5,353 bases of DNA, taken from Escherichia coli. GTDB taxonomy: Bacteria; Pseudomonadota; Gammaproteobacteria; Enterobacterales; Enterobacteriaceae. The stretch lies in the NCBI RefSeq assembly GCF_003334315.1, contig NZ_QOWR01000096.1; one strand, written 5' to 3'. The notes under the pieces were generated by a model. It did not search any database. It was given only the letters and a program-made list of their open reading frames with translations, and was not told the origin of the DNA. This document shows positions 1 to 5,352 of the stretch, one piece after another (positions within the stretch are counted from its first letter, which is position 1; each line of letters begins with the position of its first letter). A program made the translations under genes and the position numbers.

Positions 1-75
1 TTATCGTGAGAGTAATTCATCGGCACGTTAAATCATATCAGGCGTAATACCACAACCCTTAAGTTAGCGCTTATG
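1..75. mobile_element. Terminal end of an IS186-like insertion sequence (IS4 family); partial, element continues left of the window, terminus at about position 75
   Basis: Reading the minus strand from position 75 gives CATAAGCGCTAACTTAAGGGTTGTGGTATTACGCC..., which I recognise from memory as the IS186 terminal inverted repeat (IS4-family ACTTAAGG-type end). As I recall, E. coli K-12 carries an IS186 copy immediately next to yfeA. Only one end is visible, so inverted-repeat pairing and target-site duplication cannot be checked here. Confidence 0.5.
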
Positions 76-103
76 GGATAATTCCCCGGTTTTTTTACGC
101 CTG

Positions 104-2293
104 TTAATCAGCTAATGGCTGCGGGCGACCAATCAAATACCCTTGCAGATATTGCACCCCGAGCTTATGCAATAGCGCCTGCTGCTGTTGCGTCTCGACA
201 AACTCCGCGACCACACTCAATGACTTCGCTTTCGCCAGATCGGTAATTGATCTCACAATCATCGCATCCAGCGTGTTCGTGACAATATCTTTCACAAAGA
301 CGCCATCAATTTTGATGATATCAGCCTGCAAACGCTTTAACCGTTCGTAGTTGGCATATCCGGTGCCAAAGTCATCAATCGCAATCCGGAAACCAAACTT
401 ATGCAGCTGCTCGATGTTGTACATGCTGCTTTCTGCGTTAGAAAACGCCTGCTCCTCGGTGATCTCAAGAATGACCGCCTGCGGGGAGATGTGATAACGC
501 TTAAACAGACGAATAATCCGCCCGGCAATATTCTTTTGCAGCAGCGTGAGCGGCATTAAATTGACTGAAAAGCGCGGTCCTTTTTTGTCGCAAGGGTGTG
601 TTGCCAGCCACTTCAACAAGGATTCCAGCACTTGCAAATCAAAACGCGCGCTAAGGTTAAACTGAGCAATAAGGGGCAGAAACTTATCCGGGGTCATAAT
701 GCCGCCGTCATATTTCAGTCGCGCGAGGATCTCATCATAACCTTCACCCTCTTTGTTGCGAATTGGCTGGGCGTAGAGCAGCAAATCACCCTGATCTAAC
801 GCCGTGCGAATGGTATTCAGCAATAGCACCTGTTTAGTGGTCTGCCCGGAAACCATCTCCTCTCTGCTATCCAGCGCCAGCACATGATGATGTGCGCAGG
901 ATTGCTCCGCCAGCCAGCTTAACTGCCCCAACAAGGGTTGCAGGGTTTCCTGATTTCCATCAAAACGCCCCCAGGCAGCACCATAGCCCATATCCAGCCC
1001 GGTATTGTTCCAGTGAATTTGCCGACTATTCAGGATGTTAACCATATGCTGGAGTCGCCCTTCCGTTTCCGGCCCGCTCAGCACTAACAGCAGTTCACTA
1101 CCCGGCAATTGATACAACTTTTCGTTTTCCTGCATCAACGGCAGCAGCGTACGGCAAATTGAGCGGATACAGTGAACGCGCATCATTAAGCCGTAATGAC
1201 GACTCATAAACTCAAGATTATCAATGCGCAGGCAGCAAAAACTCTTGCCCGCCTCTTGCTCCGGCGCTTGTTCCAACGCACGAAAGTTGGGTAGGAGCGT
1301 TAACGGATCTGTCAGCGCCTGCAAATGCCAGCGGCGATTAAGCCATTCACTGCGATGATAAATGCGCACCATATAGAGCAGGCAAACGCTAAAGGAAATC
1401 AGCACCGCAAGAATAAATGCCAGCGAATATTCGGTTTCCACCCCTTGCAAAAAGTTCTGGTTGTAATTCAGAAGGCAAAGCGTTGAAACAGCCCAGGTGA
1501 GATTTAAAAACGGATAGCGAAGCTTACCGACCCCGAGGGTAAAGATGATGAAGAAAACGGGTACCAGGTAACCGGCAATAAAGTCGTTTTCATAAGGTGT
1601 GCACAACAGAAGTAGCAGCACGCTTAACGCTGCCAGCCAGCTTAAGGTAAATGCGCGTTTCTCTTTGCCCAACGACGGAGCGATATCCCTGCGCCACAAT
1701 ATCTGCGCAAAGTGGGGACTTACAATCATGCGAGTGAGATAGTAGAAAAGCATGTTGTAAATCAGCACAGCGGTGAAAAGGCTTAGCAAATCAACGACCG
1801 TGAAAATGGCATCCGCATCGCCGAAAAAGGTGGATATCTTTAGCGGGAAATCAAAGAAGCTCCCCACAAGATACATGCTGCATTTGATGCCGATCGGCGT
1901 CACCAAACCAAGCCAGAACAGACGTTGCCAGACATATCGGCTGGTCAATCCATAACGCCAACGCGTCCCCAGCTGCCAGCGTAATATTGCGCAGGCACAC
2001 AACACGACAAACGTCTGGCTACCGAGCATGACCGCAGTCTGTAAAAAAGAGAGATGAAAGTTCCACAGATTGGTGCAAAACATCCCGCATAAAACGGGAA
2101 CGACACCGCGCCAGCCAAAGATAAACAAGATTGACAGCATTACGCACAGTGGCATCCACGCCAGAAAGATATAACTGGAATGGATAATGGCAAGTGGCGA
2201 AATAAAACGGGATAGCTGAATAAGTACCACGGTGAGCGTAAACGCTAGTGTGAATATCTTGATATTTTTTATCAGGTTATGCTCCACAAACAT
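104..2293 (-). CDS. pdeA: c-di-GMP phosphodiesterase PdeA (YfeA): N-terminal MASE1 membrane sensor domain, degenerate GGDEF domain, C-terminal EAL domain; 729 aa
   Basis: Single long minus-strand ORF ending in TAA at 104-106. The supplied ORF (104..2410) starts at a GTG; I place the start at the in-frame ATG at 2293 (MFVEHNLIKN...), which gives the 729 aa I remember for K-12 YfeA and begins directly with the hydrophobic multi-TM segment. A weak GAGAG Shine-Dalgarno-like element lies about 12 nt upstream. The C-terminal half carries EAL-domain signatures in the translation: YAQPI...EILARL, LEITEEQ, IDDFGTGYANY, KIDGVFV, EFVET. The GGDEF-equivalent position reads QLPGSEL, so the cyclase domain looks degenerate. 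Confidence 0.88.
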   Translation of the reverse strand: MFVEHNLIKNIKIFTLAFTLTVVLIQLSRFISPLAIIHSSYIFLAWMPLCVMLSILFIFGWRGVVPVLCGMFCTNLWNFHLSFLQTAVMLGSQTFVVLCACAILRWQLGTRWRYGLTSRYVWQRLFWLGLVTPIGIKCSMYLVGSFFDFPLKISTFFGDADAIFTVVDLLSLFTAVLIYNMLFYYLTRMIVSPHFAQILWRRDIAPSLGKEKRAFTLSWLAALSVLLLLLCTPYENDFIAGYLVPVFFIIFTLGVGKLRYPFLNLTWAVSTLCLLNYNQNFLQGVETEYSLAFILAVLISFSVCLLYMVRIYHRSEWLNRRWHLQALTDPLTLLPNFRALEQAPEQEAGKSFCCLRIDNLEFMSRHYGLMMRVHCIRSICRTLLPLMQENEKLYQLPGSELLLVLSGPETEGRLQHMVNILNSRQIHWNNTGLDMGYGAAWGRFDGNQETLQPLLGQLSWLAEQSCAHHHVLALDSREEMVSGQTTKQVLLLNTIRTALDQGDLLLYAQPIRNKEGEGYDEILARLKYDGGIMTPDKFLPLIAQFNLSARFDLQVLESLLKWLATHPCDKKGPRFSVNLMPLTLLQKNIAGRIIRLFKRYHISPQAVILEITEEQAFSNAESSMYNIEQLHKFGFRIAIDDFGTGYANYERLKRLQADIIKIDGVFVKDIVTNTLDAMIVRSITDLAKAKSLSVVAEFVETQQQQALLHKLGVQYLQGYLIGRPQPLAD

Positions 2294-2334
2294 GAGTACA
2301 CTACTCTCACTGATCGGGGTTTTCAGGCACACAA

Positions 2335-2363
2335 ATAATAAGTTTATTCGCATCGCGAAGCAA
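2335..2363 (-). promoter_or_regulatory. Candidate sigma70 promoter for pdeA (-35 TTGCTT, 17-nt spacer, -10 TATTAT on the minus strand)
   Basis: Minus strand reads TTGCTT (plus 2358-2363), a 17-nt spacer, then TATTAT (plus 2335-2340), about 45 nt upstream of the ATG at 2293. Motif match only. Confidence 0.2.
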
Positions 2364-2466
2364 ACAGGGGGCCAGCCTGTTGCCGATTTTTCATCCAATG
2401 ATGCTTTCACCAGGCGGCACTAACCCGGACGTAGACTGTATTACAAAAGCGGCAAAAAGCAGAGAC

Positions 2467-2492
2467 AAAAAACCCCCGCTTTGCAGCGAGGG
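2467..2492 (-). terminator. Rho-independent terminator of the tRNA-Ala transcription unit
   Basis: Minus strand reads CCCTCGCT-GCAA-AGCGGGGG followed by TTTTTTG: an 8-bp GC-rich stem (one G-U pair), 4-nt loop and 6-T tract, starting 9 nt after the tRNA 3' CCA. Confidence 0.75.
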
Positions 2493-2501
2493 TTGGAAAT
2501 T

Positions 2502-2577
<76 letters not shown>

Positions 2578-2609
2578 GTCACGTAAAGCTTGTCGAGTTG
2601 ACGGGCGGC

Positions 2610-2638
2610 ATCATATGAATTCCGCCCGAATGTGTCAA
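2610..2638 (-). promoter_or_regulatory. Promoter of the tRNA-Ala gene (-35 TTGACA, 17-nt spacer, -10 TATGAT, GC-rich discriminator)
   Basis: Minus strand reads TTGACA (plus 2633-2638), CATTCGGGCGGAATTCA, TATGAT (plus 2610-2615), then GCCGCCC. This is a consensus -35 with a 5/6 -10 and the GC-rich discriminator typical of stringently controlled stable-RNA promoters. The predicted start is roughly 20-25 nt upstream of the mature tRNA 5' end. Confidence 0.6.
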
Positions 2639-2748
2639 CGGCAAATTGCAACGTGTAGTTTCAATCGCTGAAAAATCAGGCAAATGAACAATTTTGGAAA
2701 ACCGCTCGCATTCAGTAGTTATTCATGTCACGGTTTCCTGTAAAGTGG

Positions 2749-2757
2749 TGTTATAAA
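2749..2757 (+). promoter_or_regulatory. Candidate extended -10 promoter element for yfeC-yfeD (TGtTATAAA)
   Basis: Plus strand has TG (2749-2750), one nt, then TATAAA (2752-2757). No good -35 lies at 16-18 nt, which an extended -10 can tolerate. It sits about 55 nt upstream of the yfeC start. Motif match only. Confidence 0.25.
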
Positions 2758-2812
2758 ATGAACTACTAATAGACCCACATACATTCAGGGAATTGTTATG
2801 TTCAAGGAGAGG

Positions 2813-3157
2813 ATGACACCAGATGAACTTGCCAGACTGACCGGCTATAGCCGCCAGACCATTAATAAATGGGTACGCAAGGAAGGCTGGACAACGTCAC
2901 CAAAACCTGGCGTCCAGGGTGGCAAAGCCCGACTGGTTCACGTCAATGAACAGGTTCGTGAATATATTCGCAATGCTGAACGTCCAGAAGGTCAGGGAGA
3001 AGCGCCTGCCCTTTCTGGTGATGCGCCGCTTGAAGTATTGCTGGTGACACTGGCGAAAGAGATGACGCCAGTTGAACAAAAACAGTTTACATCCTTGCTT
3101 CTGCGGGAAGGGATTATCGGATTGTTACAACGCTTAGGGATTCGCGATAGCAAATAA
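2813..3157 (+). CDS. yfeC: YfeC, small putative DNA-binding protein with an N-terminal excisionase/MerR-like winged HTH (DUF1323-type); 114 aa
   Basis: The supplied ORF is 2798..3157. I favour the internal ATG at 2813 (MTPDELARL...) because a strong Shine-Dalgarno AAGGAGAGG (2803-2811) sits directly upstream and it gives the 114-aa length I recall for K-12 YfeC; ATG 2798 remains possible. HTH signature ELARLTGYSRQTINKWVRKEGW. Stop TAA at 3155-3157. Confidence 0.82.
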   Translation: MTPDELARLTGYSRQTINKWVRKEGWTTSPKPGVQGGKARLVHVNEQVREYIRNAERPEGQGEAPALSGDAPLEVLLVTLAKEMTPVEQKQFTSLLLREGIIGLLQRLGIRDSK

Positions 3158-3158
3158 T

Positions 3159-3551
3159 ATGAAAAGATTACGCAATAAAATGACCACCGAAGAACTGGCT
3201 GAATGCCTCGGTGTGGCTAAACAAACTGTTAACCGTTGGATCAGAGAAAAAGGCTGGAAAACGGAAAAATTTCCCGGCGTGAAAGGCGGTCGTGCCAGAC
3301 TTATTCTGGTCGATACGCAAGTTTGCGAGTTTATTCAGAACACGCCAGCCTTCCATAACACACCAATGTTGATGGAAGCTGAAGAGAGAATTGCTGAATA
3401 CGCTCCTGGAGCACGCGCCCCGGCGTATCGACAAATCATCAACGCGATAGATAATATGACAGACATTGAGCAGGAAAAAGTCGCGCAATTTTTGTCACGT
3501 GAAGGAATTCGCAATTTCCTCGCCCGTCTCGATATTGACGAATCAGCATAA
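3159..3551 (+). CDS. yfeD: YfeD, paralog of YfeC; small putative DNA-binding protein with the same HTH type; 130 aa
   Basis: ORF starts at ATG 3159, 1 nt after the yfeC stop (TAAtATG), with no convincing independent Shine-Dalgarno, which suggests translational coupling. The N-terminus EELAECLGVAKQTVNRWIREKGW and C-terminus align with YfeC at about half of positions by eye. Stop TAA at 3549-3551. Confidence 0.85.
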   Translation: MKRLRNKMTTEELAECLGVAKQTVNRWIREKGWKTEKFPGVKGGRARLILVDTQVCEFIQNTPAFHNTPMLMEAEERIAEYAPGARAPAYRQIINAIDNMTDIEQEKVAQFLSREGIRNFLARLDIDESA

Positions 3552-3593
3552 ATAAAAAACGGCAGGATATTATCTCCTGCCGTTTATCTTTTT
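3551..3593. terminator. Bidirectional rho-independent terminator shared by convergent yfeD (+) and gltX (-)
   Basis: Perfect 11-bp stem AAACGGCAGGA (3557-3567) / TCCTGCCGTTT (3575-3585) with a 7-nt loop. It is followed on the plus strand by ATCTTTTT and on the minus strand by TTTTTTATTT. It lies between the yfeD stop (3551) and the gltX stop (3603). Confidence 0.8.
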
Positions 3594-3602
3594 ACACGCT
3601 AA

Positions 3603-5018
3603 TTACTGCTGATTTTCGCGTTCAGCAATAAAATCCAGCGCTTTGTTGATACGCTCGATACTGCGGGTCTTACCAATTGCGTGAACGGTAACATCCAGTG
3701 CTGGAGACTGCCCCGCACCGGTTACGGCGACACGCAGCGGCATACCAACTTTACCCATACCCACTTCCAGCTCATCCGCCGTCGCCTGAATAGCGTGATG
3801 AACGTTTTCAGCGGTCCAGTCAGTAATCGCGGCCAGTTTGTCACGAACCACTTCCAGCGGCTGACGCGCTACCGGACGCAGATGTTTTTTCGCGGCGTCG
3901 GCATCGAACTCAGCAAAATCTTCGTAGAAATAACGGCAGCTCTGTGCCATCTCTTTCAGCGTCTTGCAGCGTTCGCCCAGCAGTTTCACCAGATCAGCCA
4001 GCTGCGGGCCGTTACGGGTATCGATATTTTCCTGCTCAATGTGCCACTGTAAGTGAGTAGCAACATACTCCGGCGGCAGCGCGTTAATGTAGTGATGGTT
4101 CAGCCACAGCAGCTTGTCGGTGTTGAACGCACTGGCAGATTTGCTGACGGCATTCAAAGTGAAGTATTTGATCATCTCTTCACGAGTGAAGATTTCCTGA
4201 TCGCCGTGGGACCAGCCCAGACGCACCAGATAGTTCAGCAGTGCTTCTGGCAAATAACCGTCATCACGATACTGCATTACGCTGACTGCCCCGTGACGTT
4301 TGGACAGTTTTTTACCGTCATCGCCATTGATCATAGAAACGTGCGCGTAAACCGGCACCGGCGCTTTCAGGGCCTTAAGAATGTTGATCTGGCGTGGCGT
4401 GTTGTTGATATGGTCTTCGCCACGGATAACGTGGGTGATTTCCATATCCCAGTCATCGACAACCACACAGAAGTTATAGGTTGGGGAACCATCGGTACGG
4501 CGGATAATAAGATCGTCCAGTTCCTGGTTGCTGAACTCGATCGGACCACGGATCTGATCGTCAAAAACAACAGAACCTTCCTGCGGGTTAGCAAAACGTA
4601 CAACACACGGTTCATCATCAGCATGATGCTCATGGCTGTGGCGGCAGCGACCGTCATAACGCGGCTTCTCACCTTTCGCCATTTGCTCTTCGCGCAGCGC
4701 TTCCAGGCGCTCTTTAGAGCAATAGCATTTATAAGCAGTGCCCTCTTCCAGCATCTGATCGATCACCGCGTTGTAGCGATCAAAACGTTTGGTCTGGTAG
4801 TACGGACCTTCATCCCACTCCAGGCTCAGCCAGTTCATGCCATCCATAATGGCTTCGATAGCTTCCGGCGTGGAACGCTCAAGATCGGTGTCTTCAATAC
4901 GCAGCACGAACTCACCGCCGTGGTTACGTGCAAAAAGCCAGGAGTAAAGAGCAGTACGCGCGCCGCCAACGTGCAGATAGCCTGTTGGGCTTGGCGCGAA
5001 GCGAGTTTTGATTTTCAT
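3603..5018 (-). CDS. gltX: Glutamyl-tRNA synthetase (GluRS), class I aminoacyl-tRNA synthetase; 471 aa
   Basis: Translation begins [27 protein letters not shown] with the class I HIGH motif (HVGG), contains the KMSKS-type motif KLSKR, and has the zinc-binding CYC...CRH segment of E. coli GluRS. ATG at 5018 is preceded by Shine-Dalgarno TAAGG; stop TAA at 3603-3605. The length matches E. coli GltX as I recall it. Confidence 0.97.
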
Positions 5019-5083
5019 GAAATGGCCTTACGTTTAGAAAGATGCCGACAACCGGCAAATCCTGGAAAAATTAAGTGGGCGAT

Positions 5084-5111
5084 ATTCTATCACTCCCGCC
5101 TGATTCCTCAA
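5084..5111 (-). promoter_or_regulatory. Candidate gltX promoter with extended -10 (-35 TTGAGG, 16-nt spacer, TGaTAGAAT)
   Basis: Minus strand reads TTGAGG (plus 5106-5111), a 16-nt spacer, then TGATAGAAT (-10 hexamer at plus 5084-5089), roughly 60 nt upstream of the gltX ATG. gltX is reported to have several promoters; the assignment here is a motif match only. Confidence 0.35.
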
Positions 5112-5136
5112 TGTAGTTCGGGTTTCTACCTTACGC

Positions 5137-5165
5137 ATTATTGTTTTCGTTGACAAATTGCGCAA
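5137..5165 (-). promoter_or_regulatory. Second candidate gltX promoter (-35 TTGCGC, 17-nt spacer, -10 AATAAT)
   Basis: Minus strand reads TTGCGC (plus 5160-5165), a 17-nt spacer, then AATAAT (plus 5137-5142). An overlapping alternative is TTGTCA with 17 nt to TAAGGT. Motif match only. Confidence 0.25.
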
Positions 5166-5231
5166 CACGGTCTGTTTTGCGATCATCTTGCTTAAATTTA
5201 CGACGAACGAACAATTTCTTTAGAAAATGCG

Positions 5232-5259
5232 TTGACTCATTTTGAACTCTCCCTATAAT
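5232..5259 (+). promoter_or_regulatory. valU tRNA operon promoter (-35 TTGACT, 16-nt spacer, -10 TATAAT, GC-rich discriminator, AT-rich upstream region)
   Basis: Plus strand has TTGACT (5232-5237) and consensus TATAAT (5254-5259), followed by the discriminator GCGACTCC. The tRNA begins at 5277, about 10 nt past the predicted start. Upstream 5190-5231 is AT-rich (UP-element-like). Confidence 0.8.
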
Positions 5260-5276
5260 GCGACTCCACACAGCGG

Positions 5277-5352
5277 GGGTGATTAGCTCAGCTGGGAGAG
5301 CACCTCCCTTACAAGGAGGGGGTCGGCGGTTCGATCCCGTCATCACCCACCA
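5277..5352 (+). tRNA. valU: tRNA-Val (anticodon UAC), 76 nt with encoded CCA; first gene of the valU operon
   Basis: Sequence GGGTGATTAGCTCAGCTGGGAGAGCACCTCCCTTACAAGGAGGGGGTCGGCGGTTCGATCCCGTCATCACCCACCA. Acceptor stem GGGUGAU/AUCACCC, anticodon loop CUUACAA (anticodon UAC), GGTTCGATCC T-arm. It ends 1 nt before the window edge. Confidence 0.95.

Follow-up and report, generated by a model that had tools for sequence, protein, structure and literature searches.

The segment from position 2294 to position 2410 of the window (the whole analysed stretch of 5,353 nt of Escherichia coli DNA from contig NZ_QOWR01000096.1) is probably a non-coding region consisting of the core promoter and the short leader of pdeA, in which the open reading frame upstream of the gene and the hairpin are both incidental. 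In the arrangement proposed here, an RNA polymerase carrying, as we infer, sigma-70 would use TTGCTT (2363-2358) and, after a 17-nt spacer, TATTAT (2340-2335), and would initiate transcription at G 2328; the 35-nt leader formed in this way, with its weak Shine-Dalgarno-like GAGAG, would then be translated from ATG 2293. A weaker distal start at 2426, located just past the tRNA-Ala terminator, would produce a leader of 133 nt. The open frame upstream would be an accident of a G5 allele, with relatives carrying G4 and with other small indels breaking the frame further down, and the hairpin would be an Escherichia-restricted inverted repeat, the sense-strand 3' arm of which abuts the -35 hexamer. 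Both the promoter and the start sites were already present in the literature, and the current annotation of the pdeA start is confirmed by the analysis.

The window corresponds to a part of the E. coli chromosome that contains, from left to right, one end of IS186/IS421, pdeA, tRNA-Ala(GGC), yfeC, yfeD, gltX (on the minus strand in the window) and tRNA-Val (valU). Positions 53-2577 and 2497-5352 are each 100% identical to MG1655, and the MG1655 coordinate (NC_000913.3) is obtained by adding 2515539 to the window position, a conversion that is valid to about window position 2497. The features of pdeA, its promoter and the adjoining tRNA gene are as follows.

104..2293, minus strand: pdeA (yfeA) coding sequence, 2190 nt, 729 amino acids, with MASE1, degenerate GGDEF and EAL domains
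2291..2293, minus strand: ATG, assigned as the true start codon from orthologue alignment, the P1 mRNA and anti-Shine-Dalgarno pairing
2294..2327, minus strand: rest of the 35-nt P1 leader, with the Shine-Dalgarno-like GAGAG at 2304-2308 and a 5-bp GAGUA/UACUC hairpin abutting the AUG
2328, minus strand: P1, the proximal transcription start site, a G (MG1655 v3 2517867; Kim 2012, 3 reads)
2335..2340, minus strand: P1 -10 hexamer TATTAT, 7 nt upstream of the mapped start
2358..2363, minus strand: P1 -35 hexamer TTGCTT, with a 17-nt spacer to the -10 hexamer
2426, minus strand: P2, the distal transcription start site (MG1655 v3 2517965; Kim 2012, 7 reads), with a 133-nt leader that includes the hairpin
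2461..2494, minus strand: intrinsic terminator of the tRNA-Ala operon, a 10-bp stem and a T run
2502..2577, minus strand: tRNA-Ala(GGC), found by ARAGORN and by Rfam RF00005

The pair TTGCTT-17-TATTAT was first noticed in an alignment of Escherichia sequences, and a start near 2328-2330 was then predicted from it, ahead of the published table. Start-site mapping, which the preliminary description of this DNA had proposed as a check, is available from Kim et al. (2012; PMC3415461, supplementary file 2), in which 5'-RACE sequencing enriched for primary (5'-triphosphate) transcripts from exponential phase in M9 glucose gave two minus-strand start sites for yfeA, with 5' UTRs of 35 and 133 nt. The published 51-mers map to 2328-2378 (the site with the 35-nt UTR) and to 2426-2476 (the site with the 133-nt UTR), both on the minus strand, and both sites come from one dataset and one growth condition with low read numbers (3 and 7). 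P1 is credible because the sequence-based prediction, the conservation across genera and the mapped 5' end agree exactly. The 5' end lies 7 nt past the -10 hexamer, within the range of 6-8 nt, and the spacer of 17 nt is likewise within the range of 16-18 nt. Among the nine Escherichia sequences, the -10 hexamer and TGCTT (2362-2358) of the -35 element contain no variable position in the per-region count, and the remaining, sixth position of the -35 element (T 2363) is the same in all nine rows. The P1 block is also retained in C. koseri, S. enterica, S. bongori and L020 (a relative with 59% identity), with the -10 hexamer kept as TATTAT or TATCAT in Citrobacter, Salmonella and L020; the Citrobacter and Salmonella loci were reached through the contigs of PdeA protein homologues, the scan of genome contigs having given Escherichia only. 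The agreement with the consensus amounts to three of six positions in the -35 hexamer and five of six in the -10 hexamer, which is below the threshold of the consensus scan, so the promoter was left unflagged. The leader (2294..2327) is nearly invariant in Escherichia, and its predicted fold is not unusual (z -0.45 and -0.57). In the ChIP-chip data of Cho (2014), the resolution of which is coarse, an RNA polymerase region begins at the pdeA start, but the sigma-70 peak is attributed to the side of the tRNA and yfeC. A search of the literature on the regulation of yfeA/pdeA turned up phenotype or expression tables only.

The distal start, P2, is located just downstream of the tRNA-Ala operon terminator, which is itself nearly invariant across Escherichia, Citrobacter and Salmonella. 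A -10-like hexamer, TACAGT (2440-2435, minus strand), lies within a TTTTGTAATACAGT block that is common to Citrobacter and L020. The TTTTGTAATACAGT block as a whole (2435-2448, minus strand), just upstream of 2426, is conserved in Escherichia, C. koseri and L020, and not in Salmonella; it may represent the -10 region of a putative distal promoter or another site. The 133-nt distal leader is not unusually stable in its predicted fold (z -1.07).

The position of P1 bears directly on where PdeA begins. As had been reported from the sequence, the pdeA frame remains open past ATG 2293 to a GTG at 2410, with an ATG at 2353 in between, giving an open reading frame (104..2410, minus strand) of 768 amino acids. 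The frame is open for 126 nt from ATG 2293 and is closed by a TAG at 2420-2422, and it contains two further in-frame starts, GTG 2332 and TTG 2398, that were absent from the preliminary description. The elements concerned are as follows.

2330..2410, minus strand: four non-conserved in-frame upstream starts, GTG 2330-2332, ATG 2351-2353, TTG 2396-2398 and GTG 2408-2410
2367..2371, either strand: G5 (plus) or C5 (minus) run, a length polymorphism that sets whether GTG 2410 is in frame

We agree that the start is ambiguous from this one sequence; comparative and published data settle on the annotated ATG 2293, which, judged from the aligned orthologues together with the published start site, is the real start of pdeA. 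A 2190-nt coding sequence with the equivalent start is annotated by RefSeq/PGAP in MG1655 and in five other genomes, and ATG 2293 aligns exactly with the orthologue ATG in C. koseri, S. enterica, S. bongori and L020. The residues that follow the ATG are conserved among the pdeA orthologues, with a consensus that ends in N-L-(L/I)-K-N-I-K-I-F, and the Pfam MASE1 domain occupies residues 55-354 of the extended reading frame, that is, residue 16 onward of the 729-amino-acid protein. The 39-residue extension is covered by none of the 64 database homologues, for which the top query coverage of 89% corresponds to residues 40-340. The pairing with the anti-Shine-Dalgarno sequence is best at ATG 2293 among the candidate starts, yet weak itself (-4.0 kcal/mol), and is followed by GTG 2410 (-3.2), TTG 2398 (-2.8), ATG 2353 (-1.5) and GTG 2332 (+0.1 kcal/mol), so that the upstream starts lack a good ribosome-binding site. 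As the proximal start site is at 2328, ATG 2293 is the sole candidate start within the proximal mRNA, and the upstream candidates are present only in the distal transcript.

In the sampled strains of C. koseri, S. enterica and S. bongori, the pdeA orthologues are called as split or N-terminally shortened proteins (335 + 389, 150 + 579 and 540 amino acids; loci L013 3001-5200, L014/L015 and L016). This suggests frameshifts or pseudogenes of pdeA in these strains, in a sample that leans toward truncated database entries.

Upstream of the ATG, indels of 1, 2 and 5 nt in the alignment of the relatives break the frame, and the distance from the -10 hexamer to the ATG differs among them by 1, 2 or 5 nt. 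The upstream frame is closed after 3 nt in L020, 9 nt in L019 (47% identical), 27 nt in E. whittamii, 54 nt in Salmonella and 96 nt in E. coli with the G4 allele (four other E. coli genomes sampled). The sole relative in which it does not close within 3-96 nt is Escherichia sp. MOD1 (L007), where a 1-nt deletion alters the set of upstream codons that are in frame and leaves it open for 123 nt in another register. In the window, GTG 2410 is in frame only because of the G5 run at 2367-2371. Each of the eight other Escherichia sequences in the sample has G4 at this run. Of 5426 complete E. coli genomes, 2056 carry a perfect match to the 56-mer of the window, and at least 1903 differ from it. Among the matches listed, all 17 examples of 98.2%-identity variants of the 56-mer span 55 nt, one base shorter.

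A PdeA isoform lengthened at its N-terminus by as many as 39 residues, made in G5 strains by translation of the distal transcript from GTG 2410 (or ATG 2353), is very improbable. The extended frame is indeed open in the allele of the window, and P2 lies 16 nt upstream of GTG 2410, the pairing of which is little below that of ATG 2293. However, the pairing is weak to negligible over these two candidates, the frame of the extension is broken in each of the eight other Escherichia sequences and the large share of E. coli genomes counted above differs at the run on which it hangs, ATG 2353 is replaced by ACG in E. albertii and is followed downstream by indels in three taxa, and the extension is carried by no homologue. 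Conservation of frame and start, coverage by homologues and the ribosome-binding site all speak against a translated N-terminal extension.

The second element of the region is the inverted repeat upstream of the P1 -10 hexamer, with the tract that follows it.

2360..2383, either strand: inverted repeat or hairpin, with arms 2363-2368 and 2376-2381, loop 2369-2375 and two further pairs with one bulge
2387..2391, plus strand: T5 tract after the hairpin, with GCCGA in between

The hairpin exists as first described, with AACAGG (2363-2368) and CCTGTT (2376-2381) separated by a 7-nt loop and extendable to 8 bp with one bulge, followed on the plus strand by GCCGA-TTTTT. It is at chance level. The folding energy is -9.5 kcal/mol (z -0.09) on the plus strand and -10.2 kcal/mol (z -0.6) on the minus strand relative to shuffles; when dinucleotide shuffling is applied to the 208-nt intergenic region, 23% of the resulting sequences contain a perfect 6-bp repeat with a loop of 3-8 nt, and 5% contain one with a T/A-rich tail in addition. 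The terminator-like scan of 1-2500 gave seven sites against 3.5 +/- 1.8 in shuffles. The search of Rfam gave no match in 2294-2470 at E <= 1, and no significant covariation accompanies the one compensatory pair, so the region does not resemble a known cis-regulatory RNA in these respects.

The suggestion that the hairpin and T5 tract might terminate antisense transcription is unsupported by this comparison, and an intrinsic terminator that halts plus-strand transcription from pdeA before the tRNA-Ala gene is highly unlikely, even though the terminator-like scan flagged the hairpin and T5 tract on that strand. The stem has six pairs, of which three are G-C, with the near-average plus-strand energy given above, and the T tract is just 5 nt long and starts 5 nt past the perfect stem (3 nt past the extended stem). 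The nearest plus-strand promoter-like site upstream, at 291-319, is about 2 kb away inside pdeA, and the table of Kim et al. (2012; PMC3415461) gives no start site for the plus strand between nupC and yfeC. Upstream there is nothing but the antisense of pdeA, and the hairpin does not close a transcription unit of its own strand. The tract is interrupted (sense AAATAT) in three of the nine Escherichia sequences, E. whittamii, E. coli SCPM-O-B-8794 and Escherichia sp. E1V33, and two single changes in the stem are A-C mismatches on the plus strand. As for Term-seq, another check that had been proposed, the accessible part of the tables of Adams et al. (2021; PMC7815308) contains neither a 3' end at these coordinates (25179xx in MG1655) nor a Term-seq end labelled pdeA.

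The same tables, in the part accessible, place a region of Rho termination within pdeA, at window position about 2024 (MG1655 2517563, minus strand), some 270 nt from the beginning of the open reading frame. Its Rho score is 7.7 (p 2.6e-39), and bicyclomycin raises the downstream reads from 38 to 298 (Adams et al., 2021; PMC7815308). On this basis, Rho appears to abort most transcription of pdeA early in the gene. A terminator-like hairpin in the sense orientation, TCCCGTTTTATGCGGGA followed by TGTTTTGCAC (2083-2099, minus strand), is also located within the pdeA open reading frame, about 200 nt past the start codon and upstream of the Rho region.

With respect to P1, the hairpin occupies -53 to -35, and its sense-strand 3' arm ends on the first T (2363) of the -35 hexamer; because of this position it is promoter DNA, not RNA, for the P1 transcript. 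The reading of the hairpin as a 5'-UTR structure consequently holds for the minor distal transcript from 2426 only, in the leader of which it lies at about +44 to +67, and fails for the P1 transcript. Within the distal leader, other pairings replace it in the predicted minimum-energy fold.

The conservation of the repeat within Escherichia was considered separately. The stem is kept in seven of the nine sequences; its variation consists of one double compensatory change (AACAGA/TCTGTT in E. albertii), two G-U-compatible changes and one break, and the two single changes that form G-U pairs do so only in pdeA-sense RNA. The frequency of minority cells per cell is 0.04-0.06 in the arms, compared with 0.16 in the loop and 0.16 in the region upstream. 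Because the arms vary less than the loop and because of the double compensatory change in E. albertii, some constraint on the repeat is possible. It nevertheless appears unlikely that the repeat controls pdeA in Escherichia, whether as a palindromic operator centred near -44 of P1 or as an RNA hairpin of the distal leader tuned by the G4/G5 loop. The conserved arms with their variable loop, the compensatory and sense-only G-U changes, the inclusion of the hairpin in the RNAalifold consensus fold and the distal start at 2426, which places the repeat in an RNA, are consistent with such control. Against it, 55 of 500 column shuffles do as well as the observed stem conservation, the RNAalifold covariation term is -0.03 kcal/mol, the stem is broken in one Escherichia sequence and the repeat is not part of the predicted minimum-energy fold of the leader. 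The hairpin was not found in the aligned loci of Citrobacter, Salmonella, L020 and L019, even though the P1 promoter is kept in Citrobacter, Salmonella and L020; another palindrome lies farther upstream in C. koseri, and there is none in Salmonella. No regulator with this half-site is known, and the half-sites are not known to match those of PurR, PhoP, Fur, LexA, CRP or FNR. That an Escherichia-specific repeat centred about 44 nt 5' of the P1 start is a real control element (an operator or a distal-leader hairpin), with the G4/G5 difference altering pdeA expression, is quite doubtful; if it were true, the polymorphism would shift pdeA expression, and so c-di-GMP turnover, between E. coli lineages, which would be of modest interest. 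The option of no function, which the preliminary description had kept, was rightly retained, and we infer that the hairpin most likely has no termination function.

The loop and the sense-strand 3' arm also contain CTGGCCCCCTGTTTGCT (2375-2359), in which GG and GC stand at the canonical -24/-12 spacing, and could in principle be read as a sigma-54 promoter. The window contains TGGCNC-N5-TTGCW once, where 0.02 occurrences would be expected, although this pattern was picked after the sequence was seen, and CTGGCCCCCTGTTTGCT resembles CTGGCCCGCCTTTTGCG, the weakly bound site of yegT. However, no sigma-54 ChIP-seq peak is present upstream of yfeA at either threshold in MG1655, which has the same G5 allele (Bonocora et al., 2015), and against a matrix built from 42 bound intergenic sites CTGGCCCCCTGTTTGCT scores 12.7 bits, below 39 of the 42, with about 160 such matches expected per genome. 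The arrangement GG-N10-GC is found in the G5 allele only; with G4 the score drops below -5 bits, which makes the match an accident of the derived allele. With its low score, the missing ChIP-seq peak and the failure of the G4 allele, a sigma-54 promoter at pdeA was rejected as extremely improbable. Elsewhere in the gene, a sigma-54 motif, TTGGCACCGGATATGCCA, is found in the 3' part of pdeA (352-369, minus strand), and this motif was reported as an intragenic-sense ChIP-seq peak at the reduced threshold (yfeA, 2513904, v2 coordinates; Bonocora et al., 2015).

Several differences between the window and other genomes were observed around pdeA. The tRNA-Ala(GGC) gene (window 2497-2577) is present in one copy, whereas two tandem copies are present in MG1655 (alaX and alaW) and in all the other genomes of E. 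coli, Citrobacter and Salmonella that were inspected; the window is short of exactly one 115-nt repeat unit, which could reflect a real recombination between the copies or a collapse of the assembly. The end of IS186/IS421 (window 1-78), which adjoins the pdeA stop, has the orientation opposite to that of IS186C of MG1655. Read as the reverse complement, positions 1-52 correspond to the 5' end of insL (ATGAATTACTCTCACGATAA), and within 1-78 only positions 53-78 match MG1655; the same IS186-pdeA junction is found in 467 of the 5426 genomes, for example ATCC 8739 and ML35. The window thus comes from a strain other than MG1655, in spite of the full identity elsewhere. For yfeC (window 2798-2815), the start is ATG 2798 (119 amino acids) in PGAP genomes and ATG 2813 (114 amino acids) in the RefSeq annotation of MG1655. 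The Shine-Dalgarno pairing is much stronger for ATG 2813 (-8.5 compared with -5.1 kcal/mol for ATG 2798), and the yfeC start site of Kim et al. (2012; PMC3415461) corresponds to window position 2753, upstream of both ATGs and 60 nt 5' of ATG 2813. Finally, a fragment with 100% identity to PdeA of E. coli is encoded on the 631-nt contig NZ_BOQD01000653.1, which belongs to a 'Bacillus hominis' assembly and is almost certainly a contaminant there.

In summary, the reading of 2294-2410 as promoter and leader ties a published start site of low coverage to a promoter that is conserved across genera, and removes one candidate antisense terminator and one candidate protein isoform from consideration. 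The common G4/G5 indel beside the -35 element, which separates E. coli lineages and might affect the expression of PdeA, a c-di-GMP phosphodiesterase, is a mildly useful by-product. The overall importance is small.

When compared with known systems, the hairpin and T5 tract are similar to a Rho-independent terminator in that a stem-loop is followed by a T run on one strand, but differ from it in that the stem is short and poor in G+C, the T5 tract is set back by 5 nt, no transcription unit feeds into it and the arrangement is not conserved. The GG and GC of the window allele resemble a sigma-54 -24/-12 promoter in their canonical spacing, whereas the score is low, ChIP-seq gives no signal and in the ancestral G4 allele the two elements are wrongly spaced. 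The upstream frame has the properties of a spurious N-terminal extension of an open reading frame, with in-frame upstream GTG and ATG codons, no intervening stop, no Shine-Dalgarno sequence and a frame that is lost in relatives, and is unusual in that the opening depends on a homopolymer polymorphism, G4/G5, that segregates within E. coli. In contrast to a typical sigma-70 promoter, pdeA P1 has a weak -35 hexamer (three of six positions) and no extended -10, and the sigma factor is presumed; P1 otherwise corresponds to a sigma-70 promoter with a short leader, with hexamers 17 nt apart, a start 7 nt past the -10, a leader of 35 nt and conservation across genera.
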